A stretch of 64,000 bases of DNA, from NCBI GenBank assembly GCA_032718475.1, contig JAUCBJ010001005.1:1-64000 (forward strand), given 5' to 3'. The DNA comes from Nemertoderma westbladi. Taxonomy: Eukaryota; Animalia; Xenacoelomorpha. The translations under genes were made by a program, and so were the position numbers. The notes under the pieces were generated by a model that did no database searches, was not told the origin of the DNA, and worked only from the letters and a program-made list of their open reading frames with translations. Positions 1 through 50,560 of the stretch are shown here, piece by piece (position 1 is the stretch's first letter; each line of letters starts with the position of its first letter).

Positions 1-2985
1 TCAAGCCCTTCCAACGCCTGCTCCGTGGTGCGAACCACTGCGAATGACAACCGAGACTCCTTCTCAAAAGAGGTGATAGACAACATCAAACGGAATATAT
101 ACATGGACGACAATTTAAGGTCCCTTCCATCAGTAGAAGAAGCCATAGATGTCGCAAAAGGAACGGTAGAGTGTTTGAAAAGAGGTGGATTTCGACTGAC
201 GAAATTCACCAGCAACTCCCGTGAGTTTCTGGAAGCGATACCTGTAGCAGACCGAGGAGCGAAAGACCTAGACTTAATAAAGGACGATCTTCCTGAAACC
301 AAGACGCTTGGCTTGAAGTGGGACACTGAAAGAGACATCCTGTTTTTTCAGTTAAAACAGCGAGATAATCCCGTTCGGACCAAACGGATTTGTTTAAGTA
401 TCCTGAGCACTTATTTCGACCCATTGGGATTTATTAGCCCAGTTATATTGATTGCTCGGAGTTTAGTACAACAAATGTGGCTTGAAAACCACTCATGGGA
501 CGATCCGCTTAAGGGAGAATTGTTAAAGAAATGGATGAAATGGGAAGATTCTCTACCTGCCATCGAGAACTTTATAATTTCCCGTGCATATTTTGGCCAT
601 GTTCTTCCTACGTATTCTTATCAACTCCATGTGTTTGGAGACGCCAGCGACATGGGAATAGGTATAGTAGCATATCTGCGAGTCGAAACTCCGGATGGGA
701 TCAAAGTCGCCTTGGTTACCTCTAAGGCATTGATTAACAACAAGTTAAAGGTTCCTCGAGCGGATTTATAGGCGGCTTTATACGCTACAGCCATCGGCCG
801 GAACGTAACGGAACAAATCGACTATCCACTGGAGAAAACGGTTTATTGGACCGACGCTTTACTCGTGTTGGAGTATCTAACCAATGAAGTCTGTCAGTTC
901 AGCGTTTTTGTTACTAACAGGGTAGCTATTATTCTTAGTCGCACAAAGATAGATCAATGGAGACATTGCCCTGGTACGATTAATCCAGCCGATATCGCCT
1001 CCAGGGGAGCAACTCCACAGGAACTGATAGATACTCCAGACTGGTTGGGTGGACCCGACTTCCTGAGCAAGGAAGAGGATGAATGGCCTCCTCACCTTAC
1101 TACGGCGGAGATTAGACAAGCCAAGGGAGCGGAGACAGTCAAACCTAAAACCCGGGCGAGTAAATCGAAGTTATTTAAACCGACTATCGATCTATCTGTA
1201 TTACATGCTTCCGGAAACGATGCTTCGGATCCACAATCCCTCGCCACAAATAAGTCTGTTGTGGAAATTAGAGATAGAGATTGGACATCTGGAATACCAG
1301 ACATCTCGCAAGGAATCTCACCCATGCTGCAGAGAGCAATGCATCACTACAGTTCCTGGAATCGGCTCTGTAAAGCCGTCACATATTTAAGGAGATGTTT
1401 TCATCATCACTACTCCAGGACGAAGACCATTAGTGATACCGCTCCATTGACATCTGCGCAAGTTCATGTTATTAAAAATTTACCCAAATATAAGACATCT
1501 GACCGTTTTTTAAAGGAGAAAATTAGTCACCAGGAGCATGAAGAAACAAATAAGCAGATCCTGAGACTCCTGCAATGCTATGAGGATTCCGATAAGTATT
1601 TCCTGTTGTTGAGAAATCCGCAGATGCGCTTAAGGGATCGATTCTCTAGCACAATGATAGATGGGTTAATACGTGTTGGAGGAAGACTCACCAATGCGCC
1701 ATTATCCTTTGACACTAAATTCCCCATACTCATTAGAAATCTTGAAGTACAAATCAAGATGATTATAGATGTCCACAGCAAACTTTATCATGCTGGTAGA
1801 GAACGAGTTCTTAGCGAAATTCGAACTCGCTATTATTTTGATAAACCCCGTAGAGCTCTGAACCAAGTTCTTAGGAACTGCATACCCTGTAGGAAAGCAT
1901 TCAGTAGGCCTTTAACACAGCGAGAGGCAGAATTACCTAGGGAACGAGTAAGCTTCTATGAACCACCTTTTACTAATACTGGTGTAGATTTATTTGGCCC
2001 TATCGAAGTATATCGTGCGAGGACTATAGTCAAGAGATGGTGTGTCATCTTCGTATGCATGACTTGTAGAGCCATCCATCTCGATATGGTGAACGATCTA
2101 TCTACCAACAGCTTCGTCTTAAGTTTACGCCGACAGATCGCTCGCTTCGGGACGAGTAATACCATGAGATCGGATAAGGGAACGAACTTCATTGGTGCCA
2201 ATAACGAAATACAGGCTTACGTGAAGGACTGGAACCAAAGACAGGTGGACGACCAGCTAAGGATAACAGCGTCTAGCTGGACCTTCAACGCCGCCGACGC
2301 CCCTTGGTGGGGAGGAAGTTGGGAGAGATTAATTAGAAGTGTTAAGACCGCATTTCACTTTATAGTGCCATGCCGCGCGTATCTCACCGACGAACTTTTG
2401 CGGACGTTAATGGAGGAAATAGCTGCCTATCTCAACGAGAGACCGCTTATGCCAGTCTCATCGAGTCCCGATTCCCTGGAAGCTCTAACACCCATGCACT
2501 TCCTACTGAAGAAACCTGTAGCCATGCTCCCACGATCGGAGATTGCCGACGGAGACGAATACTGCCGTCGAACTTGGCAACTTATGCAGTTGCTATCCCG
2601 TCGTTTCGCTGACCATTTCGAGAAACATTATCTGCCCACGCTACAACTTCGAACTAAGTGGTTTGCGCAGCAAGAAAACGTCAGCGCCGGAGATATGGTG
2701 CTTATTGTAGATCCAGACCTCCCACGTAAACGGTGGCAGACAGGTCGTATCATCGAGACCCACATCTCGGATGATGGTTTAGTACGCTCGGTAGAACTCA
2801 TCGTCATGCGGCGTAACTTCAAGAAGCCAGGCATAATCTTTGAGACGCAACAACTCAATCGCCCAGTTGGTCGTTTATGTTTACTGGAAAGAAACAGAGA
2901 ACTCTCCGGAAACTATGGAAGGCAAGACACTCTTCCCACGACCACCTCCCTAATTCCTCAAACATCTAGGGACTCCCCAACGTGA
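1..2985 (+). pseudogene. pol (RT-RNase H-integrase) of copy A, one in-frame stop
   Basis: ORFs 25-771 and 865-2985 share a frame; TAG at 769-771 corresponds to AAG in copy C. Confidence 0.9.
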
Positions 2986-3825: not shown

Positions 3826-4615
3826 AAAATTCACGGGAATAAATTCAAATTCATATTTTAAATGAATTTCATAAATTGTCATTTTGTACAATTTATAACA
3901 TTCCCAAAATTCCATTAATTATTAGATCATGGGAGCGGAGATTCATCCTATTGAGTGTATTAGAGTGCGAGAATCTCCAACATATAGTCAATAGCCGATA
4001 AAATTAATAAAATCATGCATAAAGAGGATATTGACAATTAAAGAATTATTATTAAATAGCATCCCAGATCTGTATGCATGAGAATTACCCTAATTCTACC
4101 GCTAGCATTCCATAATGTCACCATAGCAACGCCCACGCTAGAATTAGAAGCAAGTTAAGAGAACAATAGAAAGCTTGCCACATTGCATAGCATAGAGAAT
4201 ACATAGCACACTGTTAGTATCCAAGGATACACAGTAATAACGTGGCATTCTGGAAGGCACTGACTAACGGACAAATGGCCTGTATGTGTATAATTGGTGA
4301 CAGTTGTGTGGAATTTGTGCGTTTATAGGTGGATGTTACTGCTAAAGTATGTTTACATTAGCTAGTCGCAATTGTAAAAGTAGCCCAACTCTCCTATAGA
4401 AAGAACCTAAGTGGATCCAAGCCTTTGGGACGGACAGTGGAGTGACTTGTGCCGGTTATCGTTGTCGTGCTGTTGCTACATGTTGGCGTAAACACCGCGA
4501 CGACGGTACATCGGCGCTGAGAATCCCACTGTCCGGGGGCAAAGAGAAGTAGGCAGCGACGCCCGCTCGCCTAAAATATAAACTCATTTGATATTAATAA
4601 ACTCAGATAGCAGAT

Positions 4616-7600
4616 ATGACGGAGTTGATAGAAGATGATCTTGGTATTAGGGAGCGATATACTCTACCTTTACAAGCATTTGTGGATAGCTTAATACGCG
4701 GTGAAGCCGATCCAACCATTACGGAGGACGATGGTCGTTATATCGAACCGCCGATGTCCCAAGAGCAACTTGCGCGTGAATTGGACTATCGAAAATTCAC
4801 CACTCGCTATACGAATCGTAATGGTACGTATATGGACTTCTTAACGACCGGCCATCCTATCGATTTACATGATACGGACGATGTAGATACAGAGAGGGAA
4901 ATGGTTCTATTTAAATATCATACCCAGCGGAGTCGTAACGATAAACCGAGAATAGATCACGAAAATTCTATTCGTAATAGACTGGAAAGAGAAAACGTTG
5001 AAGAACCGGATAAACACATCGACTTCAACGAATACCTAGAATTTTTGAGAGAAACCTATCTCAACATCGCTAGTCAGCAGAACTTATAGACTCGATATCC
5101 TCAAGGTATACATCACGACCCTGTGGTAGAACTCAAACGGCTCTATTTCACTATGATGTATCTTACCGCTGATCGTCCACTACCTGTTATCCCGGATAGT
5201 TTTGAACAAATGGAAGAATATTGCAAAACTGGAGAACGTTCACCCACGTTTCCTCTACAGGACGTACGTCTTTGGTATTATTGTGACGAATGCCCTAGAC
5301 CCAACCAACAAACTGAAAGACACAAACATCCGCGGAGACGTTGCGCTAAACATAGTTTTACGCGTTACACTTACGGGAGTTTCGAGCGAAACCTGTTCGA
5401 CGTACCACCCACGATCGCTCGTCTTAAACGATCACTGAATAAACCCATGATCAGAGTTCCGGAATACTCGGTCAGGCCTCCTCATTCCCTAGTGAGACCT
5501 CAAACTCTTGAGCCTAACAGTATCACTGATCCTCCCGAACTATATTCCCTGTTCAAAGACTTAGTGTTACCCGAACAATTAATCGGTGGTGCTCCGGTAG
5601 TGGGTTCATTAGACATTCGCCCATCCTACTTAGCCGGATTGGGGCGCGGGCAGCTAATATCGCCCTTTGATCCTTACAATCGTCCAGGATTAAACCCGAT
5701 GCAACCCGCCACGGAAGTCGAGGAGAGCGTTATAAGAAACGCTTTAGACGCCATTCGACAGAAAATCGGAAAGGGAACACAAGATTGTTTAGAGAAACGT
5801 AAATTACAACAACAAGTCCAATCGGTGAAGGAGTTAGCCTTGCCACAGTTCGATAGAGAAATCCAAAACCTCGAGGAAGACATCGAGCTTGGACGCACGT
5901 ATTCTCTACAAGAATTTTTAGATGAACGCTTACAGAGACAAGCGGAAGAAAATTTACTCGAGGAGAAACACACGAAACTGGAAGAGAGAGAAGAAGCCGC
6001 TTTAGCCCAACCTGAAGCTCAAATCCTCATGACGGACCTCTACTCTAAAACCGTTCGTCATCCCTCGATGATTCCACATTTCGGAGACAAGCTCTTTGCG
6101 ACGATACAGCCTCAACCGGTTGATATCAGTACAGGATCGCAAAATCTTATCGCTGACGCCCCTATGTTACAGCGTCCGCCGATCGAGGCCGCTCGTGTTG
6201 ACGGTATACTCGTTGAACCTCCGGACAATCGAGCGGATCTTGTCCGTCGTATGGTACACGATGTCAACATACGCGCTAGACCTTTACAGAACTCGTTTTA
6301 TGGGATTAAAGACCACCCTTATTACGTTAATCTGACTCAATATTATATGGTAAAACCAGAAGACCCGACGCATAATTTAAAGTTTCTACCACTAATAAAT
6401 CCTCTAGACATTGTCGAACTCGAACAATTGCAGAAACATCTGGATCAGTTAGTAAAGGTAAACTCATTTAGAAAACCATATAACATTTCTCGAATCGAGA
6501 AAGATATAGAACCTCCTTATAATCTCGATGGATTTATCAAAACTCGATTAGTCCATTGGAATCTAGATGTATTATTTGAAGAAGAGAAAATACAAAGATA
6601 TGGAAATGTGGAGACGTATACCACTCGGCACATGAAGTATAGTGATCTCCCTGACGCTAACCAATGCGCCACCTTGTGGCATCCAGTAGGGATGACCCTA
6701 GAGAACGCCACCAAGGAGTGGAATGAAACTCTTAATGTTATTGAGATGTATGGAGTTGTCACCTACGATAATGAAGGTAGCGTTCCGGTCGGAGAACTAG
6801 GAACTACGCGCATGATCCACATACGCGGATTAGCTGGTTCTACCCACGTGTTTACTCGAGCGTGTTCCGACGTGATTGATTATTCTTTTGAAACTCTCAC
6901 CGAAACACAAAAGAATCTCCGACATGGACAATTCGAACTCGCGCAGCGTTACGTCATTGACACCGAACGCAAACCGGCCATGGGCATCGATGGATCGATG
7001 TTACCCCAGCCCGTACTCGAGATGTTATTCAATAAAAGAATCCTTAAAATCGGCTCAGCTGTTTATGGAGATCTCCAAAACGACTTTCGGAATATGGAGA
7101 ACATTCCATACCCTTTCGTTGATACTCAGCTGATTGCTCCCTGGGCAGAAGGTCGAGGTTTCTTCCGCACCATGTATGCTAATACGTCTAGCAATATTAC
7201 AAAGGTGCAACGAACTTCCATCGGACATCTTGCCTTTCAGGAATACGGATGGAATTTCAAAGTCGGAAATCCCATTAACTATCAACAAGTATACGGAGAC
7301 CATTATTCTCGATTATACTTTGATGGACCATTGACCGCACCTGGCGCCGTGTATAGCTTCATGAGTGTTCCACTCCTTCCCTCCTTAGCTATATACACGA
7401 TCTTTGAAAACACCGCACTTGCCGGTTGGCTAGCCGATGTGTGCAGTCGTACCATACGCGCCCATCCATTAATACTTGGGACCAAACTCGCTAAGCTAGA
7501 TGAACATAATAAATTCATCCGTTTCGAATGTTTCCGGCGATTTTTAACCCCGTTCCGCAACGTGGATAGCCAATTTAAAGACCGCGCTTTGACCAAGCTC

Positions 7601-8869
7601 AGCCTAAGAAACTCAGCTGCAGAGAAGTTGGATAGCGCTGGATTCGCCGTTTTCCAAGAGATTTGTATATCGAACTTGCACTCCTCTGTTATACAAAGAC
7701 CTCGAATCCCCACAGGTTATTCTGTCGTGGAAATTCAGACAATAGGTCCACCTGAAGAGACAGACGCGCCCACTTCAGCTATGCACTTGGAAGACGAACC
7801 AATATGTCTAGAATCTGAAGAGATTCAGCCTATCGCGCCCCGGAACAGCGACAACGATTACATCATAGAATGGTATCAAGGTCCACAGTGTCTCACTGCG
7901 TACGATTATCGACATGCCAACTATGTTTCTAGGCAACGTTGTCGGTTATGCGCATCGAGAGACCACGATACGCCCATGGACACCAACGTCCGCTGTTCCT
8001 ATTTCCAAGAACAACCGACTATGGAAATTTATTGCGCATATTGCAGACTCAATAACTTGCATATCTTTGCGGTTTGCCCTCAATTTATGACTCAATGTCA
8101 CCATTGTCAACTAAAGGGACATGCCAGTTTCGATTGCCCTTTTAATCACGATTTGGAAAGCGTAGATGAAATGATCACACTACGTTACATCAGAGCTTGG
8201 GAAGCGAACGCTGATTTACATTGTGATTCGCGCCATCGCTATTATCCCGGACGCGCTTACGAAGGAGTTTATGCGTTCCATCCTTATCTATTCGCTTCGG
8301 TCGAACAGAAATCACGCATATCGAGTTATGAGCTACTGAAGCGCGTCGGAGAATGTATTTCAACCAAATTCGTACGCAAATTTCTCAGGAGTGTTAATCC
8401 TAGCGACCTTCATTCCTATAACTTAATCAATTATATCCGTCAGGATCCGGACTATGGAGACTTGTTTGTTAACTCACACCCCGAGTTACAGGAAGTATAT
8501 CGACGACCTTACGAATACCGAGCCCGCGAACGCGAGTTGGAAAGAACCATTAAACCCCGGAGGTTTCTAACTGCCTATGGTCCGCCCACGGCCCTCGTTC
8601 AGACCACTCGTAAAGGACCCGTAAGAGCGGCTGTCTTGAAACGAGCTCTCAAAGCCGTTAGACCCCTCTCCCCTGACGTTGATGTCAATCAACCCGGTAC
8701 TTCGACTGGTGGATACACCGACCATAATCCTACACCCTCTGATGCAATCATATTGCACCCTTCACCCAGGAGTTATAGCCCTCCTTGTAAAGTGGCTCGC
8801 CCCAAAGAGAAAAGGACTCTGGCTAGCTTTAAAAAACTGTGTAAACGCCGTCCGCGCAAGAAAGACTAA
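4616..8869 (+). CDS. ORF3 of copy A: ~1417-aa protein with a DEDDy-like 3'-5' exonuclease domain and CCHC zinc knuckles (one premature TAG at 5087-5089)
   Basis: ORFs 4616-5089 and 5123-8869 are in frame, and copy B has GAA at the TAG position. Motifs VVTYDNEG, LPQPVLEMLFNKRILKIGSAVYGDL, PFVDTQLIA, TSIGHLA and PLLPSLAIYTIFE follow the WRN/RNase D exonuclease pattern. Three Cys/His clusters lie at 7940-8137. Domain call made by eye. Confidence 0.8.
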
Positions 8870-8938
8870 CTGTTTAGAGTATTTACGTATATTAGAAACT
8901 GTGATTTTGTATATTTTATAGACTCAAATCCCATTTTC

Positions 8939-8947
8939 TGGGAGCGG
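8939..8947 (+). other. Polypurine tract of copy A (tgggagcgg)
   Basis: Directly abuts the TGT start of the LTR; identical in copy B (34017-34025, minus). Confidence 0.75.
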
Positions 8948-10213
8948 TGTAAAAGCTTCTGTGGGATATAACTGGCCCTTTTGCTTCGCAATCCAGTTTC
9001 CCCCCAGGCGCTGGAATACTCTAAAAGGCTCTCTAACTATATATATATTCCCCTCGCCCGCAAGGTACCGTTATAGGTGTTTTAACAGACATAAAAGTCA
9101 TTCTTCTATATACGTGCTTTAGCGGACATGGTAAGGCAAAAAACCCGCAATGCACCAAATACCTTTACACAGCTTAGCCTTGATGATTCAGATTACGACA
9201 TCTAACAGCTGGTTGCTGACATGGAAACGGCCATTGGACACATGGTTCTTTGTTTAGCTTAAGCCAATCAGAGCGATTTTTTCTGTCGATGTGGAGATAT
9301 TCGGCCGATCATACTAGGAGTGTTGAGTCTTACTGTTTTTTCTTGTTACTGTTGTGTTGTTTCTATCTAGGCCAGGAACACCGGCTCTAGAGTCAATTCG
9401 TTTCATACTTTAGAAGAAACATTAGTAGGCTTAAATTATAGAGCGTATAACTGTTATCATAACATAACAATCAGTGCATAACATATCAACTTATCTCAAT
9501 TCAGTCTTACATTATCGGTTCAACATACATTATTATACTGCTATTTACTGTTGTTTGGTTGAATATTATTTGGAGAATATTTATAAAGAACCCAAATTTC
9601 CCAATTTTCTTGATACACTACAGGTTAGAGAGACGGGTTATATATAGCGATTGCGACTTATATTATTGTGGTTTGTAGTGAATTTAATGCTATTTGATAA
9701 GCACTACATGAGTCCGTTGCTGTTCTCTTTATATATAATAAAATTCATTGACGGTCGGCAAATTAGTGAGCAGTATTGTGTGTTACCGGTAGTGTGCCTG
9801 ATTGTGATTGATAACTAAGCATTTCCTAAAGAATGCGCCTCATACGTGAATCATAAGCCTTACCGACTTACCGTTGTGATTAGTATAAGTCATATCTCTG
9901 TTTACCTAGATAGAGCGCCACGTCCAAAAGGAACTGTTAATATTTCCCGAAAGTGAATAATATTAGTCAGAAATTATTTATTAACGATCAATCGAATAAT
10001 ACAGTAATCTTACACTGCAATAATAATCTAAGCCCTCAGAATCCAGTCTCCCGGGTATATCCAGCGGGTGAATGGACGCGCACTTGGCTGGCTTCTGCTA
10101 ATGTTGTGTTTATTGGTATTAAATATTTGTCAACTTCTAAAGTCTATTTGTAAACCAAAAGACATATAAATTTTGGCAGGTTAAACTGCTAAAGGTCTTC
10201 AAAAGCGCGTACA
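8948..10213 (+). repeat. 3' LTR of copy A (1266 bp)
   Basis: tgtaaaagc...gcgcgtaca; closely matches 49171-50364. Confidence 0.95.
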
Positions 10214-10337
10214 AACCTTCCTTGCTGCGCTCGATCGGTACATAAATATACTCTGGTCATATAAAGCGTGTTTTATTAAGTAGTCTTAATAGTTATTATC
10301 TTAAGACAAATTTGATTTAATAAAATTTGTGTTGCAG

Positions 10338-11689: not shown

Positions 11690-11692
11690 TGA

Positions 11693-32894: not shown

Positions 32895-34016
32895 TGTTCG
32901 CGCTTTTAGACCTTTAGCAGTTTAACCTGCCAATTTTAGTTGTCCTCTTGTTTATAAATCGACTTTAGCCTTTTACCAATTACCTAGAATCCAGCCGAAG
33001 CCAGTCCGTGCGCGGCGTATGACCCACGGTGTGGGAGACTGGATTCGGATTCCTTGGGAGTTATTGCAGTGTAGACCTACTGTATTATTCGATTGATCGC
33101 TACTATATAATCTCTGACAACTATATTCACTTTCGGGGAAATATTAACAGTTCCTTTAGGACGTGGCGCTTTAAGTATAAAAACAGAGTTATGACTTATA
33201 CTAATCACAACTAGATGGCCACAGAGTTTCGTAAATAGCGCATTCTTTAGGAGATGCTTTATTAACCTTCACACTACTTCACACGACTTCACACTACTTC
33301 ACACTACTTTACACTAGTTCGCACTAATCTGCCGACCGTCACTGAATTTGATCATATATAAGGAGGATCTCAACTGACACACGTAGGGATTATGAAATAG
33401 CATTTAATTCACACAAAACCACTATAATTTAAGTCGCAGTTGCTACCGGTTAACTCTATTCCTCTTACCTCAGTAATCAATAAGATTGATGGGTTTATGA
33501 TTATTTATCTGTATTCTCCAAATATAACATCAATATCCATTAATATAACAATTAATACTATAAACAGAAGTAAATAATGCGGTGAACAGTCAGTATGTGT
33601 TACTTATGCAGTTATGAAATGTTCAGTGGTGCGTCAAATAAGTTGAAATGTGATCAAATGTTAATAGATTTACGTTCTTATAACCAAGGCCATCTGATGT
33701 TCCTAGGCCAAAGTCTGAAACTTCCGCACAGAAGCACAGAAAATTCGGAGTTGGTTCTGATGCTCAGAAAATAGTAAACAAAGACCGTAATGCATTGCGT
33801 GAGTTTCCATAGGTTTCTGTTAGCTGTAAAGTGAAAATTGCTCTGATTGGCTGAATAAGACAACAAAGAACTTCCACGTCCACAAAGAATCAGCTGACAG
33901 ATTTCGTCATCTTGGTTCTAATTCCTTCCCGTCGCCGTTGGATAAATTTAGGGCTATTTTAGAGTACTCGGCGCATTGCGTAAAAATGACTTGTTATGTC
34001 CGCAAAAGCTTTTACA
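32895..34016 (-). repeat. 3' LTR of copy B (1122 bp)
   Basis: tgtaaaagc...gcgcgaaca on the minus strand; about 99% match to 48214-49170 apart from small indels. Confidence 0.95.
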
Positions 34017-34094
34017 CCGCTCCCAGAAAATGGGATTTAAGTCTATAAAATATAAAAAATCACAGTTTCTAAAATACAAAAATACTCTAAACTA

Positions 34095-37000
34095 TTAGTC
34101 TTTCTTTCGTGAATGGCGTTTACGAAGTTTTTTGAGGCTAGTAAGAGTCCTTTTCTCTTTGGGGCGAACCACTTTACTAGGAGGGCTATAACTCCTGGGT
34201 GAGGGGTGCAATACAATTGCATCGGAAGGTTTCGGATTACGGTCGGTGTATCCGCCGGTCGAGGTACCCGGTTGATTGATATCAACCTCAGTGGAACGAG
34301 GTCAAACAACCTTTAGAGCGCGTTTCAGGACAGCAGCTCTTACTGGTCCCTGACGGGTCGTTTGCACGAGAGCGGTAGGTTGACCGTGAGTAGTGAGAAA
34401 TTTCCTCGGTTTGATGGTTCTTTCCAACTCGCGTTCTCGGGCTCTATATTCATATGGTCGTCTATGAACTTCTTGTAGCTCTGGATGCGAGTTTATAAAC
34501 AAGTCACCATATTCCGGATCTTGGCGGATGAAGTTGATCAAGTTATGGGAATTAAGGTTGTTAGGATTAATATTCCTAAGGTACTTGCGAACAAATTTAG
34601 TCAAAATATTCTCGCCAACACGCTTCATTAGCTCGTAGCTAGGGGTGCGAGATTTTTGCTCAACGGAAGCAAAGAGATATGGGTGAAACGCGTAGACTCC
34701 TTCATAGGCACGTCCAGGATAGTATCGATGACGTGATTCACAATGGAGATCTGCGTTAGCTTCCCAGGCTCTGATAAAACGCAGGGCAACCATTTCGTCT
34801 ACGCTTTCTAGATCTCGGTTGAAAGGGCAATTGAAACTTGCGTGTCCCTTAAACTGGCAATGATGACATTGAGTCATAAATTGAGGACTGACTGCGAAGA
34901 TGTGTAGATTATTGAGTCTACAATACGCACAATAAATCTCCATAGAAGGTTGATCCTTAAAGTAGGAGCAGGGTACCCTGGAGTCCACCGGGGTAAAGTG
35001 ATCTCGTGATGCGCATAATCGGCAACGTTTCCTAGAAACATAATTGGCATGCCAATAGTCGTATGCGGTGAGACATTGTGGACCTTGATACCATTCCAGA
35101 ACATAATCATTGTCACTGCTCCTGGGCGCTGTGGGTTGAATCTCCTCGGACTCCAAGCAAAATGGTTTGTCTTCCAATTGCATAGCTGAGGTAGGTGTAG
35201 CTGTCTCCTCAAGCGAACCCACTGTTTGAACTTCCACGATAGAATAACCTGTGGGGATTCGGGGTCTTTGTATGACAGATGAATGTAAGTTCTGTATACA
35301 AACGTTCTTAAAAATGGCGAATCCAGCGCTGTCCAACTTCTCAGCAGCTGAGTCTCTTAAGCTGCGCTTGGTCAGAGCGCGGTCCTTGAACTGACTATCA
35401 ACGTTACGGAACGGAGTCAGAAAGCGCCTAAAGCGTTCGAATCGGATGAATTTATTGTGTTCATCTAGCTTGGCGAGTTTGGTTCCAAGTAACAAGGGGT
35501 GGGCACATATAGTGCGACTGCACACATCGGCTAGCCAACCGGCAAGTGCAGCATTCTCGAAGATAGTGTATATAGCTAATGAGGGACGGAGTGGAACACT
35601 CATAAAGCTATAAACGACGCCAGGTGCGGTTAATGGTCTGTCGAAGTATAATCGAGAATAATGATCTCCATATACTTGTTGGTAGCTGACAGGGTTTCCG
35701 ACTTTGAAATTCCATCCGTATTCATGGAAGGCAAGATGTCCAATAGAGGTTTGTTGTACTTTATTGATTCCGCTGGATGTATTAGCATACATAGTTCGGA
35801 AGAAACCTCGCCCTTCTGCCCAGGGAGCAATCAGCTGGGTGTCTACGAAAGGATATGGGATATTCTCCATGTTTCTGAAGTCATTTTGGAGATCTCCATA
35901 AACAGCTGAGCCGATTTTAAGGATTCTCTCGTCAAACAGCATCTCGAGCACTGGCTGGGGTAGCATCGATCCATCTATACCCATGGCCGGTTTGCGCTCG
36001 GTATCGGTAACATAACGCTGCGCGAGTTCGAATTGTCCATGTCGGAGTTTCTTTTGTATCTCAGTGAGAGTCTCAAAAGAATAATCGATCACGTCGGAAC
36101 ACGCTCGAGTAAACACATGGGTAGAACCAGCTAGTCCACGTATGTGTATCATTCGCGTAGTTCCCAGTTCTCCAACCGGAACGCTACCTTTGTTATCGTA
36201 AGTGACAACTCCATACATTTCGATAACGTTAAGAGTTTTTGTTCCACTCTTTGGTGGCATTTTCTATGGTCATACCCACCGGATGCCATAAGGTGGCGCG
36301 TTTGCTTGCATTAGGTAGATCGCTATACTTCAGATAATGTGTAGTATAAGTCTCTGCATCTCCATATCGCTGTATTCTCTCTTCCTCGAATAATACGTCG
36401 AGATTCCAATGGACTAATCGAGTTTTAATAAATCCATCAAGATTATACGGAGGCATTATTACGGAAGCTGCTTCTTCTCTCTCGTCCATTTCAATGTGCT
36501 TCTCCTCGAGCTGATTTTCCTCCGCTTGTCATTGGAAGTGTTCATCCAAAAACTCTTGTAGAGAGTAGGTTCGTCCAAGTTCGATATCTTCTTCGAGATT
36601 CTGGATTTCTCGATCGAACTGGGGTAAAGCTAATTCTTTTACCGCTTGGACTTGTTGTTGCAATTTACGTTTGTCTAAACAATCGTAGGTTCCTTTTCTG
36701 ATCTTTTGCCGAATAGCGTCTAACGCGTTTCGTACAACGCTCTCCTCCACTTCGGTGACAGGTTGTATCGGGGTTAAACCGGGACGATTATACGGTTTAA
36801 ACGGCGATATTAGATGTCCACGTCCCAATCCGGCTAGGTAGGATGGGCGAATATCTAGAGAGCCCACAACCGGAGTGCCACCGACTAATTGTTCGGGTAA
36901 CACTAGATCTTTGAACAATGAGTACAGTTCAGGAGGATCTGTCATACTATTAGGATCAAGAGTCTGAGGTCTCACCAGGGAATAAGGAGGTCTGACCGAG

Positions 37001-37851
37001 TATTCCGGAACTCTGATCATAGGCTTGTTTAAGGATCGTTTGAGTCGAGCGAGCGTGGGTGATACGTCGAACAAGTTTCCATCGAAACTCCCGTAAGTAT
37101 AGCGAGTAAAACTGTGCTTAGCGCAATGTCTCCGTGGATGTTTATGTCTTTCCGTTTGTTGGTTGGGTCTAGGGCATTCATCGCAATAATACCAAAGACG
37201 CACATCTTGTAGGGGAAACACAGGTGATCTTTCTCCAGTTTTACAATATTCCTCCATCTGTTCGAAGCTATCCGGTACAACAGGTAGTGGTCGATCGGCG
37301 GTAAGATACATCATAGTGAAATAGAGTCGTTTGAGTTCTATCATAGGGTTATGATGTATACCTTGAGGATATCGAGTTTCTAGATTTTGTTGACTGGCTA
37401 CATTGAGATATGTTTTTCTCAGGAATTCCAAATATTTGTTGAAGTCACTGCGTTTATCCGACTCTTCAACATCTTCTCTTTCGAGTCGATTTCGAATAGA
37501 ATTTTCATGTTCGATTCTCAGTTTATCATTCCGACTCCGCTGGGTATGATATTTAAATAGAATCATTTCCCTTTCGGTGTCTACATTGTCCGTATCGTGT
37601 AAATCGATAGGATGACCAGTAGTTAAGAAGTCCATATACGTACCATTACGATGCGTATAGTGAGCGGTGAATTTTCTATAGTCCAATTCATGCGTGAGCT
37701 GCTCCTTTGACATTGGCAGTTCGATATAGCGGCCATCGTCCTCCGTAGTATGTTGACTAGCGTCGCTGCATATTAAACTATCAACAAACACTTGCAATGG
37801 TAGGGTATATCGCTCCCTGATACCAAGATCATCTTCTATCAACTCAGTCAT
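34095..37851 (-). pseudogene. ORF3 (exonuclease plus zinc knuckles) of copy B, with stop, frameshifts and a ~0.5-kb deletion
   Basis: Fragments 36529-37851, 36229-36489 and 34302-36260 align to ORF3 of copy A; the segment matching A ~6000-6512 is missing. Confidence 0.9.
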
Positions 37852-39615
37852 GGCTGCTATATGAGTTTATAGATATTATAATTAATAATAATTAGGCTAG
37901 CGGTTGTCGCTGCCTCCCCCTCAGTGCCCCCGGACAGCGCAAGATCCTCAGCGCTATGTACTGTCGTCGCTGTGCCTCTCGCCAATGTAGTAGCTACACA
38001 ACGACAACAATAACCAGCGCGAGTCACTCCACTGTCCATCCCAAGGGCTTAGATTTACTGGAGGTTCTTGCTACAGACAACTGCGACTCGCTACTGTAAA
38101 CACACTTTAGTAGTAACATTCACCTATAAATACACAAATTCCACACTCCTGTCACAATTTGTACAAATTCGGGCCATTTGTCCGTTAGTCAAATGCCTTC
38201 CAGAATGCCACGTTATTATTATGTATCCCTGGATACTAGCAAGGTGCTATTTATTCCGCATGCTATTCAATGGGGCAAGCTTTCTATTGTTCTTTTAACT
38301 CGCTTCTAATTCTAGCGTGGTTGTTGCTATGGTGACATTATGGAAAGCTAGCGGTAGAATTAGGGTAATTCTCATGCATACAGATCTGGGATGCTATTTA
38401 ATAGTGATTCTTTAATTGTCAATATTCCCCTTATACATGATTTTATGAATTTTATCGGCTATTGTCTGTACACTGGAGATTCTCGCACACTAATATACTT
38501 AATAGGGTGAATCTCCGCTCCCATGATCTATTAATTAATGGAATTTTGGGAATGTTATAAATTGTATAAAATGACAATTTATCAAATTCATGAGAGGATA
38601 TGAATTTAAAATTTATTCCCGTGAATTTTATTATTTGATATTAAATAGACACAATTTTATTCCAGAACATGTCTGGGAACTAGGATCCTTAATTCTAGAA
38701 ATTTTGTCTTTTAAGAGTATCGGTAAGTGCTACGATATCCTAATCGACTAGAATTTTAGAGGATCTAAATTTTAACAGATTTTGATTTATAGATTTTCTA
38801 GAGTCAATTTGTTAGTATTTACTCTATTGTAACATTTGTTTTAACAGATTTTATAAATATTTATTAAATATTTAATATTTAAGATGGGCACCGATTTCTT
38901 CCAGAACATGTCTGGGGACGTTAACCACTGATTCTAGAATTTTGTCTTTCAAGTATATCGGTGGGTGCCGCGATATCTTAATCGACTAGAATTTCAGATG
39001 GTCAAAGGGTTTAACAGATTTATTTGAAGATTCATTAACAGATTTGTTTGATAACATTATTAATATTAATAATGTTTGTTAATATTTTTGAACTTCAATG
39101 CTACTGTTAAATGGACATCATTCTACTATATGTATTATTTAATATACGGTATGAGAGCAATATTGCAAGAAGCAATGTCAGTGAGAAGAGGCAAGTCGTT
39201 TCCAAGGTCTACCCAGAGCTTGGTTTAGCCGAGACACAAGGATCCGAACTTTGCATTCCTAATACTCTACATACCAATAATACTTGAGTATAGTAGGGGC
39301 GGTATTGTACTTTTAATATGTACGGACATTTCATCTTACTGTAGTCACATATTTATAGTATGATACGGACAGTAAGGAAAGAGAAAATGAATTATTTCTC
39401 GCCGTTAAACGAAATATATTATGCTAAGTAATTAAGTAATAAGACACTGATATATTGCACTAATCTACTGAATAATTGTTAAAATATTATTCTACAAAAT
39501 AAAATTAAAGAAAACGATTTTAATAATAAAATTACATATATAATAATGCATACATAAATATAAAATAATAAAAAAAATATAAAATAATGAAGTCACACAC
39601 CCACTCCAAACGCTA

Positions 39616-42600
39616 TTACGTTGGGGAGTCCCTAGATGTTTGTTGGATTAGGGAGGTGGTCGTGGGAAGAGTCTCTTGCCTTCCACAGTTCCCGGACAAC
39701 TCTCGGTCTCTTTCCAGTAAACATAAACGACCAACTGGGCGATTAAGTTGTTGTGTTTCGAATACAATTCCAGGTTTCTTAACGTTACGTCGCATGACGA
39801 TGAGTTCCACCGATCGCACTAAACCATCATCGGATATATGAGTCTCGATGATACGGCCTGTCTGCCACCTCTTACGTGGAAGATCTGATTCCACGATAAG
39901 GACCATGTCTCCGGCGCTGACGTTTTCTTGTGCGCAAACCACTTTGTTTGAAGTTGTAGCGTAGGAAGATAATGTTTTTCGAAATGGTCAGCGAAACGAC
40001 GGGATAATAACTGCATAAGTTGCCAAGTTTGTCGGCAGTATTAGTCTCCGTCTGTGAATTCCTATTGCGGGAGCATGGCTACAGGTTTCTTTAGTAGGAA
40101 ATGCGCGGGTGTTAGCTCTTCTAGGCAGTCGGGACTCGATGAGACTGGCATAAGCGGTCTCTCATTAAGATAGGCGGCGATTTCTTCCATTAACGTCCGC
40201 AAAAGTTCGTCGGTGATATAAAGTGAAATGCGGTCTTCACGCTCTGTATTAGTCTCTCCCAACTTCCTCCCCACCAAGGGGCGTCGGCGGCGTTGAAGGT
40301 CCAGCTAGATGCTGTTACCCTTAGCTGATCGTCCACCTGTCTTTGGTTCCAATCTTTCACGTAAGCTGTGATCTCATCATTGGCGCCAATGAAGTTCGTT
40401 CCTTTGTCGGATCTCATAGTGTTGCTAGTCCCAAAACGAGCGATCTGTCGGCGTAAACTCAGTATGAAGCTGTTGGTAGATAGATCGTTCACCATATCTA
40501 GATGGATCGCTCTACAAGTCATACAGATAAAGATGACACACCATCGCTTGACTATAGTCCTAGCACGATATACTTCAATAGGGCCAAATAAATCCACACC
40601 AGTATTAGTAAATGGTGGTTCATAGAAGCTTACTCGTTCCCTAGGTAATTCTGCCTCTCGCTGTGTTAAAGGCCTACTAAATGCTTTCCTACAGGGTATA
40701 CAGTTCCTAAGAACTTGGTTAAGAGCTCTATGGGGCTTATGGAAATAATAGCGAGTTCGAATTTCGCTAAGAACTCATTCTCTACCATCATGGTAAAGTC
40801 TACTGTGAACATCTACAATCATCTTGATTTGTATTTCAAGATTTCTAATGAGTATGGGAAACTTAGTGTCAAAGGACAATGGAGCATTAGTTAATCTCCC
40901 TCCGACACGTATTAACCCATCTATCATTGTGCTAGAGAAACGATCCCTTAAGCGCATCTGTGGATTTCTCAACAACAGGAAATACTTATCGGAATCTTCG
41001 TAGCACTGCAGGAGTCTCAGTATCTGCTTATTGGTATCCTCATGTTCTTGGTAACTGATCTTCTCAGTCAGACACCTATCAGACACTTTATAAGTGGGAA
41101 GGTCTTTAATAATATGGACTTTTTCGGATATTATTGGAGCGGTATCACTAGCGATCTTCATCCTGGAATAGTGATGATGTAAACATCTTTTCAGATACAC
41201 AATGGCCTTGCTAAGCCGATTCCAGGAGCTATAATGATCTATTGCTCTCTGTAGGAGAGGGGAGAGTCCTTGCGAGACATCTGGTGTTCCAGATTTCCAG
41301 TCTCTTTCCCTGATTTCTATAACGGATCTAGTCGTAATGGGTGAGTTTAGATCCACAGCGTCGTCCCCGGAGGTGTGTAGTACAGACAGATCTATCACGG
41401 GTTTAAATAACTTTGATTTACTCGTCTGGGTTTTAGGTTTGACTTTCTCCGCTCCCTTGTCTTGTCTAATCTCCGCTGTGGTGAGATGAGGGGGCCATTC
41501 CAACGCTTCTTTACTCAGGAAGTCGGGTCCATCTAACCAGTCTGGAGTATCTATCAGTTCTTGAGGAGTTGCTCCTCTAGAGGCGATGTCAGCTGGATTA
41601 ATCGTCCCAGGGCAATGTCTCCATTGATCTACATTAGAGCGACTGAGTATAATGGCTACTCTGTTGGAAACGAAGACGCTGAACTGACAGACTTCATTTG
41701 TTATATACTCCAGAACGAGTAAAGCATCAGTCCAATAGACAGTTCTCTCTAGTGGATAGTCGATCTGTTCTGTTACATTCCAGCCGATGGCTGTAGCGTA
41801 TAGAACCGCCTTTAACTCCGCTCTAGGAACTCGTAGTTTGTTGTTTATTAGGGCCTTAGAGGCGACCAAGGCAACTTTAATTCCATCCGGAGTTTCAATC
41901 CTCAGGTAGGCTACTATACCTATTCCCCTATCGCTGGCGTCTCCAAACACATGGAGTTGATAGGAATACGTGGGGAGAACGTGACCAAAATATGAACGGG
42001 AAATCTTAAAGTTTTCGATGGATGGTAGAGAATCTTCCCATTTCATCCACTTCTTTAGCAGTTCTCCCGTAAGTGGATCATCCCACGAGTGGTTTTCGAG
42101 CCACATTTATTGCACTAAGCTCCAAGCAACTAATATAACTGGGCTAATAAACCCCAATGGATCGAAGTAAGTGTTCAGGATACTTAGACAAATCCGTTTA
42201 GTTCTAACTGGATTATCTCGTTTTAACTGAAAGAATAGGATATCTCTCTCTGTGTCCCATTTTAATCCAAGCGTCTTGGTTTCCGGAAGATTGTCCTTAA
42301 TGAGGTCCAGATCTTTAACACCTCGGTCTTCTACCGGAATCGATTCCAGAAACTCACGGGAGTTACTAGGGAATTTGGTTAGCCGAAATCCACCGCATTG
42401 CAAGCACTCTACCGTTCCCTTGGCAACATCAATGGCTTCTTCCACCAATGGGAGGGACTTTAAATTGTCGTCCATGTATATATCCCGTTTGATGTTGTCG
42501 ATAACCGCTTTAGAGAAGGCGTCTCGGTTGTCATCAGCAGTGGTACGCACTACCAAACAATGAGGGGCTCGAGATGATCCCGAAAGCCTGGATGGTCATC

Positions 42601-45600
42601 CAGTACTCCACCGGTTTTTGGTTGAGGTCTCCTTCAGGCCACCACAGAAATCGTAGGCTGTCTCGATCCCTATCCAGCGCCTTGACTTGTAAGAACATGC
42701 CTTCTATGTCCGAAGCGAATGCGATAGAATATTGCCGCAGTCTTAGTAATATTCCCAACAAAGATTGGAGTAAGTTGGGTCCCGGCAACAGTTCTGAATT
42801 TAGGGATTGACCCATGTAAAGGGCGGAGCCGTCAAACACTACCCGGACTTTGTTGGGTTTACCGGGCTTGGGAACGTAATGATGTGTTAGATAATACGTT
42901 CTCTCCATTATGGGTGTTTCTTCTGGAACTCGCTCCACGTATCCCTTATCAATAAATTTCTTCAGTTGGGTTTTATACATTTCCCTGGCTTGAACGTTAG
43001 CCGTCAGGCGCCGATGTAGTTGTGTGATTCTCTTTTCCGCTAAAGGTCTGTTATTTACGAAGCTGTGTTCTCGCCGTCGAAACGGAAGACCAATCTCATA
43101 GCGACCTTCATCCTTCAGATAACGTGTAGTCATTTCCTGAATCTACTTGGCTCTCTCTTCCTCGACAGACAAGGCTTTGTCGTAGGAATTAGGCTCTACA
43201 GCTTCTTGAGTAAGGAATCGTACAGCGTGTTCATCGCGGATTTTGTTATTGTATCGATCTATCACTTCGTTTAATTCATCGTTATAGGTATATTGTCCGC
43301 CAGGTTGATTGACAAGATGGCATAGGTTGACTTGGTTTAACCAAGTTTGGTTCTCAGTGAGGAGATCGATGGTATTTTCCTCATCATACAAGTGGTTGAT
43401 GTCGTCGTTGTCTGAGGAGTATGGAGTTTCCTCAGTTGGGGTTTCTTCCTCACTGATTTCTTCTTCCCATTCACTCACCTGGTGTATTCTTTCATGAGGG
43501 AGTCTTTCCATTAAGGTCCTATGGGAAGGTCCAGTGAAGTACCAACCTACTCTCGTTCTTCCCGCATACATCTGTCCCAGCGAGTTGTTTGTCCCAGCGA
43601 GTACCTACTCCACCCTTTGGCAAAGTAGATGCTACGGCTCCAACAACCATATAACTCTGGTATTCTTGAGACTTACCTAACCAATCTAACTGTCTACAGA
43701 TCTCCTGAATCTCATCAGAAAATTCTATAATCGCGCTGCTAAGAAACGTTCGGGGCGCTACTAATTTCGCATACAGATACCTAGCTATGTTAGTCCTATT
43801 ATCATACCTCATGTTTAGTGTATCCCAAACTTGTCTTAATCCGTCTGGATGTCCAATAAACTTTAACGCCATTAACTTGGGAGGTCCTTCCAAGCACTCG
43901 ATGAGGAATCGAAGTTTCTCTCCATTGGATAGTACAGAGTTCTGTATGTTATCTTTATAATATTCATCCGGTTCGATTCATCGGTTCTAGCCATTTGACG
44001 CATAAAACTTTCTTGGGCCATCATATTATTTAATATCGAGTTATCGGTATATAAATTTCTCGGATTAGGATCAGGTCTATATGGAATATTGTTATCAACA
44101 GGTTTATAATTACCCTTAATAGGGTTCACTATAGGAGTTTCTACTTCACTAGCAGTATAGATGCGTGTAGGCTCCACACCTTGCGCATGAAATACTTCAG
44201 ACCTAACTGGCTGACACATTGTTACAGGGGGTTACCATATTTGTTACCATTTTGTTACCATATTTGTTAACATTTTATTTCATACCCATTTGTATATTTA
44301 CTAATTTATCGCGCTCTAAAGCCATACTTTGTTGTACTTCTTGCAACTCTAACCTACTCTCTCTTACTGTTCCCTTTAACAGCTGAACAGTCCCTTCCAA
44401 TTCACGGACCTGCTGGGAAGACTGATTCTTGTGGGCTTCCAGCTGTCCGAGCAGCTGATTCATCCCCTGTCGTCCCTCGTCCACCCACTCAACCGCAGAG
44501 GCGGGAGCCGCCAACATGGTAGCTGGGTGGCATATAGGGACGACGGGAGACAGTTTATTTATAATGTCTTGCTCGGCGTCCAGGACTGTGTTGGATTCCG
44601 GGGGTTGTCTACTGGGCACAGGTAGTTTAGTACTGTGCAAAGGGAATTTGGAGTTAGGTTCTGGAAGTACAGGGGTCTCTATCAAGGGAGTGGCTTCAAT
44701 AACAGGCCTAATTATTTCGGGCTCGTCTACTATAGTAGGGAGTCTTTCTACTCTAATAATTTGGTCTGTAGGCTCTTGATTACTTAAATCTACATTAGCT
44801 AGTTGCCTTCTCACCGCAGGAGGCAAATTAGGTAACTTCTGCCAGTGTGGCGTTCCTCTACGTCCGCTTGAACGAGATTGATTACCTTTACCCTCGGGAT
44901 CCATTGTATCACCGTCATCAGAGGAGGTAAATCCCTGTCTTCTGGGAGTAGATCGACTCAGTAGTTGAATCTGAGTAGCTGCCCTTTGTTTATTTAAGTA
45001 ATCTTGTTTCGCCTGAAGATTTTCCAACTCTAGTTGGGTTGTCGCTTCAGATACCTTCCGTTCTGCTTCTGCCACTGCCGCTTTTCTTTCAGCCTCTGCT
45101 GCTGCCGCCACCACTGCCGCTTTTCTTTCAGATTCTGCCGCTGCTGCTGCCACTTTTCTTTCAGATTCTGCCGCTGCCGCTGACCTTCGGTCTTCTATTT
45201 GCCTTTTCTTAATTTGCTCTTCTTGGTCCATAGCGATGAGGATGCTTTCATCAAATTTAGCCTGTTCTGCAGCTAATATTTCCGCATCTAAAGAATCTAA
45301 CACGAATTTGCCTCCCTCTCTATTGGGATGAAGTCCAGCTAGCTGTCTTCTGAGCTCTTTGTCTCCTATAAATCGTTGATAATCCGATAAATAGATGTCA
45401 ATCGTATCCTTCTTCTGAGGTTTTTCGGATATCGCTTCGCCTTCCACATGAGAAAAGGTGGCGTCTGTTGATTCTCCGTGGGTCATGCGCTCAGTTAGCT
45501 GAACTTTCCATTGTGTCGTTCCCTGGACCTTAACACTCACTCGTTGGAACCAAGTCTTTACAGCCACTTGCAACGACGTGTCTTGGCTTCTCTTCGAGGC

Positions 45601-46361
45601 CTCCTCAAAGGCTGAAAGGATTAATCTGATCCGTAAGATACGTTCTCGCACTTGATAAAGCAGCTCTCCCTGCTCTTGAGGTCCTTGACGTTGTTGAAAT
45701 AAATGTTCTTCTAATCGCTCCAAGGAGCTGAAGAATCCCTGGACATATCCTGCTGCTGACCTCTTCCATATAGCTGGATCTCGAGTGTCCCTTACTATCC
45801 CCATTCGGTATATGTCCTCCCAGGCAGCTTCCGATAAATTAAACGGGAGTCCGGGTCCGGGGAAGTTCTATTGTGTCTCTACAATATACCTTAGTTCCTC
45901 CATCGTATGTCCCGCTTAACTGTCCCTGGTCGATCTCTTATTTCTCATCCAATCAGCTTGATGTTCCTCCACAACGATCAATACTCTAGTGAGTACGGCC
46001 CCAGGAAGAATTAGAAGTGGATCTGGATAAACTGCTTCTGCCATCCTTGCTCCGATCTCGGGCGTTAACTCTTCAGTGTCGGAACTACTAGAGTTATTCT
46101 GCCATTGAGAAATAAGTTCCTGGCTCGGGTGCTGCTGCTGCTAACAGCCGTCTCTTGGTCTCGCTTAACTTGAGCCCTAGTGCCTATAATAGACCTATGA
46201 TGCTTTACTAGCCTAGAGTCTGATACCACTACTGTAGGGATGACCTTTCTTACAGTAGGAGGGGACTTGGACTTTGGTCTGAGATGTTCAATACTTTGAT
46301 CTGGGTCACAGATCGTTCTTTCTAGGAGACTATCTGACAGTGTTTGCTTTGTGTCAGACAT
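39616..46361 (-). pseudogene. gag-pol of copy B, fragmented; zinc knuckles and protease deleted
   Basis: Collinear ORF fragments homologous to 52600-60709; junction near 43570-43600. Confidence 0.9.
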
Positions 46362-47990
46362 GATTTATTTTACAGTTGAATGCCTACTACTATAATGACA
46401 GTTAAAGCAAGTCTAGGAATCAGTATCAACTGTCAGCCTAGTAGTTATTTACTGATACCGTTACTCAGTGTAACGTGATATATATTTAATATTAAACTAC
46501 CGGTATACACTTATAGTATATATATAAGTATTATTTACAGACTAGGATCAGTCACAGAATACCGGCATATACTTTCAGCCTAAATTTATATAAATATAAT
46601 AAGCTTACCGTAAATACCGGTAATGTCAATTATTTAATAATAACTGAATTTCTGAAATTTAGGGTTACTTCCCTTTACTTTATTACTGATATTAAGCAGT
46701 AGTTCAACTGATATTAAGACCTATTTGATGTATGACAGGCCTACTATTTTATAAATCTGATTGAGTTGATTTATAATTATAAATATATACCCGTACAATG
46801 GGTTTTGATTATATTTGAAATAAATGTTATTATTTCTGGATAAGAAGTCACTACACAGAAGCTAAACGCTCTCAGTGGAGTGCTACTTGTTAGACACTAA
46901 TACTGATAATTCTAATTTACTAAGTTACTTATCACTACAAATTACTTACAATCAGGTTGAGATTACAATCTCTAAATAAACAGTAAACAAGTTACACGTA
47001 CAATTTTTTAGGGTAATTTTACAAGAAATCTACAAACCAGTCTAACAAGGAGTTAGAATTTCTGGTTCTTACAAACTGACAGGAAACTACGGTAGTTGAA
47101 ACCAATAAAGTAGTAGTAAGTAAGTTGCGTTTTCCAGATAAGGAAATGCCACCGTCTGACGACTTATAGTTTTAAACTATAAGTTATGTACCTGGAGTGT
47201 CCTTACCTAGAGGTTAATTATCGAAGCCAACCAGAGCTAACGTACCTATTAACCACGTTACAACACAAATATACTGCCTACACACTAAATTACTTTTGGA
47301 AAGCACTGTACGCTAAACCCTAAATTAGGTACAAGTACTTATACAACAAATAACCAGCAGTTAAATATACGTGAATAGCCAAAAGAACCACGGTATCTGC
47401 TGGAGTGACCGGAGCACAAAGTCACCAGTCTTTACCTATGCCAAGCAGCCCTGATGTAGTACCGGGGTTAATTTAACTATAACAGTATGTATAACAAGCA
47501 CAATTACTGTAGGAATAAACTTGGGGAATTGGAGGTTGCGAATACTCGCATAAACTCTGAATAATAAATATTACGCTACCCGTGCAGACTATTCAAACAA
47601 AACACAGACCAAATGCTGGCAGACTACTGTCAAGCCTAAATAAATAGTATATGCAGACTCTGAAATGGTTAGTTAGTAGGCGTTCTAACCAAGTAGTACG
47701 ACTTATTCTTTCGGGGGGGATTTACCTTACAGCACTGGATGCCCCCACCTTCCTAACTAGCACTTTATCGGACAGACACTCTTCACACACCGCAATCGCC
47801 TCAGACCTAACAACAGTTAGACAACAATCCGGCCTACAAATTATTTATACAATCTGAGCAGGCTTACGTGCCTTCTGCTCAATATTACACTTACAGATAA
47901 ATAAAACTGACAGAAATATATATGCTCTAAAAGAAATAAGGGGTGTACAGTCCCTACTCTCTTAAACAGCCTACTAATATACAATATTGA

Positions 47991-48083
47991 GAGTAGCGCC
48001 CACCCCTACCCTCGGGTAGCAGCTATCGAAAGAGGAGCCTTCGGGTCGCCTCCGGCTTCGGCCGACTGTTTGCTTGCTTGCTT
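47991..48083 (+). mobile_element. 5'-truncated SINE tail inserted in the leader of copy B
   Basis: Matches 21642-21737; absent from the homologous position of copy C (~50590). Confidence 0.85.
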
Positions 48084-48201
48084 ATCACAATCGAAATAAT
48101 ACTGCTGTACCTGTAAGTACTGGTTTGGGTGATTAGGCCTACAGTTTTACTGTCTGACTGGTACATTCGACTTTATTGTCTACGGCACAATAAAGAAACC
48201 C

Positions 48202-48213
48202 TAAATCTATTAA
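48202..48213 (-). other. Non-tRNA PBS of copy B (TTAATAGATTTA), complementary to its own LTR
   Basis: Abuts the LTR end; exact inverted match to 48982-48993. Confidence 0.8.
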
Positions 48214-50364: not shown

Positions 50365-50375
50365 ATAACAGTTAT
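50365..50375 (+). other. Non-tRNA PBS of copy C (ATAACAGTTAT), complementary to its own LTR
   Basis: Abuts the LTR end; exact reverse complement of 49599-49609. Confidence 0.8.
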
Positions 50376-50429
50376 TGACTTTATTGCAGTAAGCAATAAA
50401 GTTGAAAGTACCGGTCGACCGGTAAACCT

Positions 50430-50560
50430 GAACCGGTACTTCTGTAGGTCAGTAGGCCCAACTGCCAGAACCGGTACTGCTGTAGTTCCGTAGGTCCAAC
50501 TGCCAGAACCGGTACTTCTGTAGGTCCATAGGCCCAACTGTCCTAACCGGTACTTCCAGT
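50430..50560 (+). repeat. ~38-bp tandem repeat in the leader of copy C
   Basis: aaccggtact occurs four times, with ...tagg(c/t)ccaactg between occurrences. Confidence 0.8.

Follow-up and report, generated by a model that had tools for sequence, protein, structure and literature searches.

A predicted exonuclease and zinc-knuckle gene in the env position of a BEL/Pao-type retrotransposon from Nemertoderma westbladi

What is the third gene of a retrotransposon for, if it stands where env would sit and does not look like env? This question is raised by a stretch of 64,000 nucleotides from the xenacoelomorph Nemertoderma westbladi (GenBank assembly GCA_032718475.1, contig JAUCBJ010001005.1, positions 1 to 64,000 of the forward strand; called the window below), in which self-comparison revealed three copies (A, B and C) of one long terminal repeat (LTR) element of BEL/Pao type. 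A sequence-only reading of the window had described the open reading frame behind pol, here called ORF3, as a DEDDy 3'-5' exonuclease followed by zinc knuckles. We found that ORF3 is a real gene under strong purifying selection, constrained like pol, and that its middle part very probably adopts a DEDDy-type fold, as judged from profile and alignment comparisons. Whether it is an active nuclease, and on which RNA it might act, is weighed below. The coordinates of all features are collected in Table 1.

In copy A the 1417 codons of ORF3 lie between the end of pol and the polypurine tract with the 3' LTR, exactly as they had been read. The accompanying claim that all three copies carry a frame of about 1417 amino acids did not hold, as copy A is stopped at codon 158 (5087-5089), copy B is decayed, having lost about 0.5 kb, gained one base and acquired two stops in frame, and copy C, starting at 63882, shows only 39 codons before the window ends, with a protein identical to that of A. 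ORF3 is intact in no copy of the window. It is nevertheless regarded as real because the comparison of A and B over 1246 codons gave a ratio of non-synonymous to synonymous substitution rates (dN/dS) of 0.08 (dS 0.84, dN 0.067), compared with 0.10 for pol over 977 codons. Across nine segments of ORF3 the ratio was 0.04-0.13, and the exonuclease region with 0.057 (230 codons) was the most constrained among the large segments. The same picture emerged from two DNA sequencing runs of the host species, from which 2934 and 973 contigs were aligned to positions 6755-7415: 34 of the 39 common variant sites (varying in at least 20%) were synonymous, where 33% would be expected for random transitions (p 3e-12). 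None of the 39 fell into the five codons that are candidates for catalysis; the outermost two of these lie near the ends of the aligned stretch. As 51,219 contigs of varied identity match positions 2900-10300 in one host run, the element family has many diverged copies, and the codon-158 stop of copy A is absent from the bulk of the family copies in the sequencing-run contigs. A joint between 4984 and 7789, skipping 2804 bases including the exonuclease region, was also seen in three of four runs; the DNA runs are among them, so a deletion derivative exists as DNA.

The product of ORF3 is not env-like, as had been stated. Kyte-Doolittle hydropathy (19-residue windows) reached maxima of 0.46 at the N-terminus and 1.54 in the whole protein, corresponding to no signal peptide and no segment of membrane strength, and no glycoprotein family was matched in the profile library searches. 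An env fusion glycoprotein was ruled out on these two grounds.

As to the fold of the middle part, the ESM Atlas places residues 500-800 of the long frame beside clusters of PF01612 (score 0.94, 174 features in common), the family to which 27 of 30 matches belong; shuffled proteins get 0.9 there 4-10 times per 100. The nearest clusters to this region are mostly from Nucleocytoviricota, which according to the tool's own caution is no sign of transfer. Among 18,950 NCBIfam models the RNase D model TIGR01388 was the top match (E 0.0054), and when 1.84 billion proteins were searched with HMMER a single relative emerged, P0002 (E 4.3e-7, 29% identity), which is a singleton encoded on an ENA contig of 9.4 kb. 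P0002 has the same layout as ORF3, an exonuclease-like part and then three knuckles, and its nuclease-like N-terminal part has PF01612 as only Pfam match (E 0.035). As reference profile we used 29 bacterial PF01612 domains, one of 30 loci (L143) having been removed as a partial match. Against these domains a profile of the window domain together with P0002 reached a probability of 88-90% in hhalign (E 2-3e-6), with ExoI, ExoII, DTQ and ExoIII of P0002 collinear, whereas the window sequence without P0002 reached 17-25%. In a hidden Markov model (HMM) of the 29 domains the window domain scored above 500 of 500 shuffles. A sequence search of the PDB gave chance matches for the domain alone and reached E. 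coli RNase D with the alignment (E 1.1).

Several results weigh against this assignment. The window domain has no Pfam match, and all sequence evidence stays below the family cut-offs, so that its profile similarity to PF01612 is moderate. Both structure models were of low confidence: a single-sequence model had a mean predicted local distance difference test (pLDDT) of 29.3, and an AlphaFold model with 17 C-terminal helper rows reached 41.8 and was confident only around ExoII, its alignment excluding P0002 and hence the ExoI registers that P0002 suggests. A fold search with this second model did name RNase D, NrnC, WRN and EXD2 (E 0.05-0.6), a result that is circular and non-significant and was not counted. 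The search for more homologs by words gave none for the window region (0 of 3223 candidates) or for a three-row alignment (0 of 2449), and with P0002 only P0002 itself among 7989; viral contigs, metagenome contigs, prokaryote genomes (locus scans) and phage records held no further homolog either. One might conclude from the absence of an above-threshold family match and of a confident structure model, and from the shuffles that reach 0.9 in the ESM Atlas, that there is no exonuclease fold and that the likeness of the motifs is local or due to chance in a protein of another kind. However, four different comparisons (ESM Atlas, the PDB alignment search, hhalign with the HMM, and NCBIfam) give the same family, to which the sole Pfam match of the corresponding part of P0002 also belongs, and we consider a wrong fold very improbable.

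More delicate is the active site. The residues named before were all recovered at their positions (D 6767, E 6773, D 7070, Y 7394, E 7406), and two of the three motifs could be substantiated. For ExoII, both hhalign and MAFFT put D 7070 on the Asp that is invariant in the family. ExoIII reads YxxxE and not YxxxD (Y 7394, E 7406) in copies A and B and in P0002, and the score of its alignment to P0002 was reached by only 4 of 500 shuffles. Because of this Glu the predicted domain is filed as DEDDy-like and not as a canonical DEDDy member. For ExoI, clear as D-x-E in P0002, the window domain offers three candidate registers, none above shuffles. The register D 6767/E 6773 pairs with the D-x-E of P0002 if long gaps carry a low penalty, and two further segments resembling strands come after it. 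Against an intact site, its score of 22 against P0002 equals the shuffle mean (141 of 300 shuffles reach it), its distance to ExoII of 101 residues, compared with 68 in P0002, requires an insertion of 30-40 residues, and in copy B the proposed Glu is replaced by Lys, which also fits the decay of that copy. The register at normal spacing (64 residues to ExoII) has no Glu, the third D-x-E candidate is with 37 residues too close to ExoII, and for ExoIII MAFFT prefers a YxxxS 14 residues upstream. Thus, of the earlier assignment to the WRN/RNase D family the fold is supported by ESM Atlas, NCBIfam and hhalign, but the intact active site is not borne out by sequence. We still consider it somewhat probable that the exonuclease is catalytically active with a D-E-D-E site.

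The three knuckles and the N-terminal CxxC/H/C motif are present as described. The knuckles match nucleocapsid chains (best E 0.013) and their region is shared with P0002 at a score reached by 0 of 500 shuffles; a further shared motif after the knuckles of P0002 was rejected as not significant, since 476 of 500 shuffles reach its score. Upstream of ORF3 lies a conserved rod-like RNA hairpin with counterparts at 63689-63839 in copy C and at about 38047-37895 on the minus strand in copy B. Its fold z is -5.8 in A and -6.6 in B, and among 58 pairs 3 are compensated, 7 changed on one side and 3 broken between what are only two distinct sequences. It has no Rfam match; it might serve in transport, export or packaging, or give rise to small RNA. 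Egalitarian and EXD1 are models for catalytically dead proteins of this fold that serve as RNA-binding adaptors, and ORF3 might similarly bind the RNA of the element, perhaps at this hairpin, for export, transport or packaging. The Glu in place of the ExoIII Asp and an ExoI that may be without Glu would suit such an adaptor, as would the long covarying hairpin beside the gene and the coiled-coil-like stretch, the knuckles and the basic C-terminus of the protein. On the other hand, in P0002 the D-x-E, D, Y and E are clear and collinear, the window domain offers acidic residues to match, with no common variant in their codons, and nothing ties the ORF3 protein to the hairpin, so that a dead adaptor appears rather unlikely to us.

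The way in which the element starts reverse transcription bears on the possible substrate. Within 100 nt after either 5' LTR (copies B and C) there is no TGG, and with it no 18-nt transfer RNA (tRNA) primer-binding site of the kind described by the International Committee on Taxonomy of Viruses (ICTV). The position directly behind the LTR is complementary to a site within the LTR itself, forming a duplex of 11 bp in C and 12 bp in B whose end coincides with the CA of the LTR in each of the two readable copies. The partner sites occupy homologous positions in B and C, 755-768 nt ahead of the LTR end, 4 of 11 pairs are changed on both sides between these copies, and such complementarity is expected by chance at 0.4-0.7% per copy. 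Just after the primer site, both B and C also have a short hairpin in which a pair has changed. The complementarity agrees with the criterion for self-priming given in the available text of PMC6317226, a stretch of at least 10 nt that adjoins the 5' LTR and can pair with the LTR, and the element is probably self-priming, without a tRNA primer.

With these elements at hand we tentatively suggest that the product of ORF3 is an accessory nuclease acting on the element's own RNA, whose 3' ends it would trim. Because a CAG, a candidate splice acceptor, is kept before the ATG in all three copies, ORF3 is probably expressed from its own, spliced message; an internal TATA box was rejected, as its position is not kept in copy B. 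In the resulting protein the RNase D/WRN-like 3'-5' exonuclease domain would be combined with three zinc knuckles; the knuckles would grip single-stranded RNA of the element and the nuclease would shorten the free 3' end until a duplex is met. RNase D-type enzymes shorten the 3' ends of structured RNA in this manner, up to the duplex. Among the substrates might be the primer, which the element seems to derive from its own transcript. Against this last point stands Tf1, which reportedly releases its primer by RNase H, so a self-made primer does not need ORF3; the idea that ORF3 finishes the primer is appealing but has lost weight.

Given an active nuclease, the RNA of the element is a slightly better guess for the target than host small RNA. 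The duplex between primer-binding site and LTR without a tRNA-type site supports this, and the same role, RNA 3'-end processing, is next to silencing among those proposed for related ORF3s of bdelloid rotifer elements in the available text of PMC5408684. An active nuclease could also be directed against host silencing and over-trim or destroy precursors of PIWI-interacting RNA (piRNA) or small interfering RNA (siRNA) before they are protected. Host proteins with the exonuclease fold do work in small-RNA pathways, namely Mut-7, EXD1 and Maelstrom (PMC5408684, available text), the element family is abundant and diverse in the host runs, and a separate gene acting in trans fits. But the purifying selection is uniformly strong over the nine segments and gives no arms-race signal, and the literature search, as far as the text of the sources was available, brought up no suppressor of this kind; we find an anti-silencing function doubtful.

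The carrier of ORF3 is BEL/Pao-type because its pol contains Peptidase_A17 and DUF5641 (E 6.5e-34 and 1.2e-19 in copy C, Pfam) and a gag with three Cys/His knuckles stands ahead of the protease motif, in agreement with the earlier assignment. Three Cys/His knuckles are a mark of BEL/Pao gag. The order of protease, reverse transcriptase, RNase H and integrase was read in copy C, and LTRs of 1122-1267 nt with TG...CA ends and an 8-nt purine tract fit the BEL/Pao description, with its LTRs of 0.2-1.2 kb, as well. By its predicted proteins the element belongs here, and it departs from the ICTV profile in length and primer site: even with its deletions copy B covers 16.3 kb, and for the A/C type we estimate a length of about 18.8 kb (element about 18-19 kb). 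DEDD proofreaders support the long genomes of nidoviruses, which would count for ORF3 as a proofreading partner of the reverse transcriptase. The ICTV profile of the Belpaoviridae gives a genome of 4.2-10 kb and an 18-nt tRNA primer-binding site (PMC8742986), so that the element is indeed unusually long. Yet in hhalign the two-sequence profile is nearer to the RNase D-like subset (80-82%) than to the polymerase I subset with its proofreading domains (7-20%), ORF3 is a separate gene, and rotifer elements of ordinary size carry such ORFs too (PMC5408684, available text), which makes a proofreader highly unlikely. Going beyond the trimming of own RNA, one could think of a giant, tRNA-independent BEL/Pao lineage with its own RNA-processing module, in which an exonuclease-knuckle protein from a mobile family absent from hosts matures the self-made primer or recognises the hairpin in cis, and in which, as in complex retroviruses, a trans-acting RNA factor and a response element replace env. 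This is speculative, and we would give it little weight.

Regarding the three copies, the identity amounts to 96-97% between A and C and to 82-85% between B and either of them, and the LTRs of these two subfamilies are 72% identical. The LTR pair of copy B shows 98.7% identity over 945 nt, its 5' LTR being interrupted by copy C. At the junction 49170/49171 the start of copy C coincides with the cut point of this LTR in opposite orientation, and it is likely that one subfamily inserted into the LTR of the other. Downstream of ORF3 in copy A, GGGAGCGG is followed by the TG-starting LTR (8940-8948). Two further peculiarities of copy C are an Ala/Glu-rich helical repeat of about 900 codons without Pfam match as N-terminal extension before the gag core (52594-55345) and a 1.55-kb insertion built of a 162-nt tandem repeat (61168-62720). 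Elsewhere in the window a separate GC-rich LTR element (11351-17530, minus strand) with 339-nt LTRs of 98% identity, a TGG primer site and matches to reverse transcriptase, RNase H and integrase is probably Ty3/Gypsy-type, and between the elements lies an unbroken Glyco_tran_28_C ORF (26120-26863, E 3e-28), probably an ALG13-like host gene. The 64-kb window contains no tRNA and no Rfam family.

Table 1. Positions of the described features in the window.
Feature	Position	Strand	Remark
Copy A	1-10214	+	5' part beyond window start
Copy A pol, 3' part (reverse transcriptase end, RNase H region, integrase, DUF5641)	1..2985	+	
Rod-like RNA hairpin (~120 nt) and small hairpin, GC/GU-rich	4423..4573	+	40-190 nt before ORF3 start
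CAG, candidate splice acceptor	4611..4613	+	two bases before ATG, kept in all three copies
ORF3 of copy A, 1417 codons	4616..8869	+	ATG 4616, stop 8867-8869; one in-frame stop, codon 158
N-terminal CxxC..H..C motif, residues 223-243	5282..5344	+	kept in copy B
E/Q/K/L-rich stretch, ~residues 385-465	5768..6010	+	coiled-coil-like by eye
Predicted RNase D/WRN-like (DEDDy-type) 3'-5' exonuclease domain	6668..7477	+	
Three Cys/His zinc knuckles	7940..8137	+	third is canonical CX2CX4HX4C
Short purine-rich tract adjoining copy A 3' LTR	8940..8947	+	identical in copy B
Copy A 3' LTR, TG...CA, 1267 nt	8948..10214	+	
Candidate self-primer in copy A 3' LTR	9447-9457	+	
Copy B, both LTRs, decayed gag-pol and ORF3 (37851-34095)	32895..49170	-	
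Copy B primer-binding position, 12 nt	48202..48213	-	complementary to own LTR 48993-48982
Copy C (5' LTR 49171-50364, gag, protease, reverse transcriptase, RNase H, integrase)	49171..64000	+	runs off window end
Copy C primer-binding position, 11 nt	50365..50375	+	complementary to own LTR 49599-49609

Compared with known BEL/Pao elements, the Nemertoderma element shares Peptidase_A17, DUF5641, the three-knuckle gag, the gene order in pol and TG...CA LTRs of about 1.2 kb, and differs by about twice the stated length, the missing tRNA primer site and the non-env character of its third gene. The available text of PMC13524379 and of the BEL/Pao survey PMC3118150 names only env-type extra genes for BEL/Pao elements, in PMC13524379 F-type or gB/chuvirus-type glycoproteins, and the word 'exonuclease' occurs nowhere in it. 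Full-text literature searches, with Repbase, GyDB, most subscription journals and supplements outside their coverage, brought up neither a BEL/Pao element with an exonuclease gene nor a paper on a self-priming one, as far as the text of the sources was available. With the self-primed elements Tf1/sushi, Tcn1 and TAR it has the complementarity of primer-binding site and LTR in common, but the carrier is of BEL/Pao type. With RNase D, WRN, EXD2 and NrnC (PF01612) the ORF3 domain shares the order and spacing of ExoII, DTQ, a GL-like helix and the PL...Y motif, and it is set apart by Glu for the ExoIII Asp, long insertions, the fused knuckles and a similarity below the family cut-offs.

The closest parallel is found in bdelloid rotifers, whose LTR elements Juno1/2 and Vesta2/5 were described in 2017 to carry an RNase D-like DEDDy ORF3 in the env position. 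These ORF3s are shared with Athena/Terminon elements and their activity is untested, according to the available text (PMC5408684); the account is repeated in the corresponding parts of PMC6431247, PMC6338049 and PMC5718144. The earlier statement that no prior description exists is therefore correct for BEL/Pao elements in the literature searched and not for the arrangement as such. In both cases a non-env ORF with a proposed RNase D-like DEDDy-type domain and no membrane segment lies between pol and the 3' LTR, and in both the acidic motif is altered, being written DEED for the rotifer ORF3 (PMC5408684, available text) and changed at the last Asp in Nemertoderma. Unlike the rotifer ORF3s, the one described here belongs to a different superfamily of carriers, is 1417 aa long and has three knuckles and a coiled-coil-like stretch, whereas the rotifer DEDDy ORFs are without coiled coils in the available text of PMC5408684. 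None of the rotifer ORFs was returned by the HMMER search. The clear purifying selection on the predicted exonuclease gene is an addition over the rotifer study, in which near-neutral variation was given for resequenced env and GDSL ORFs (PMC5408684, available text). That the same fold was captured repeatedly by unrelated retroelements would indicate some requirement of the retrotransposon cycle that is still unexplained, or a means of small-RNA evasion, and the unbroken exonuclease domain and the adjacent hairpin make the question of function testable in vitro. An exonuclease-like gene in the env position is already known from rotifer elements and, as far as the literature was searched, new for BEL/Pao, and the Nemertoderma element extends the arrangement from the former to the latter.

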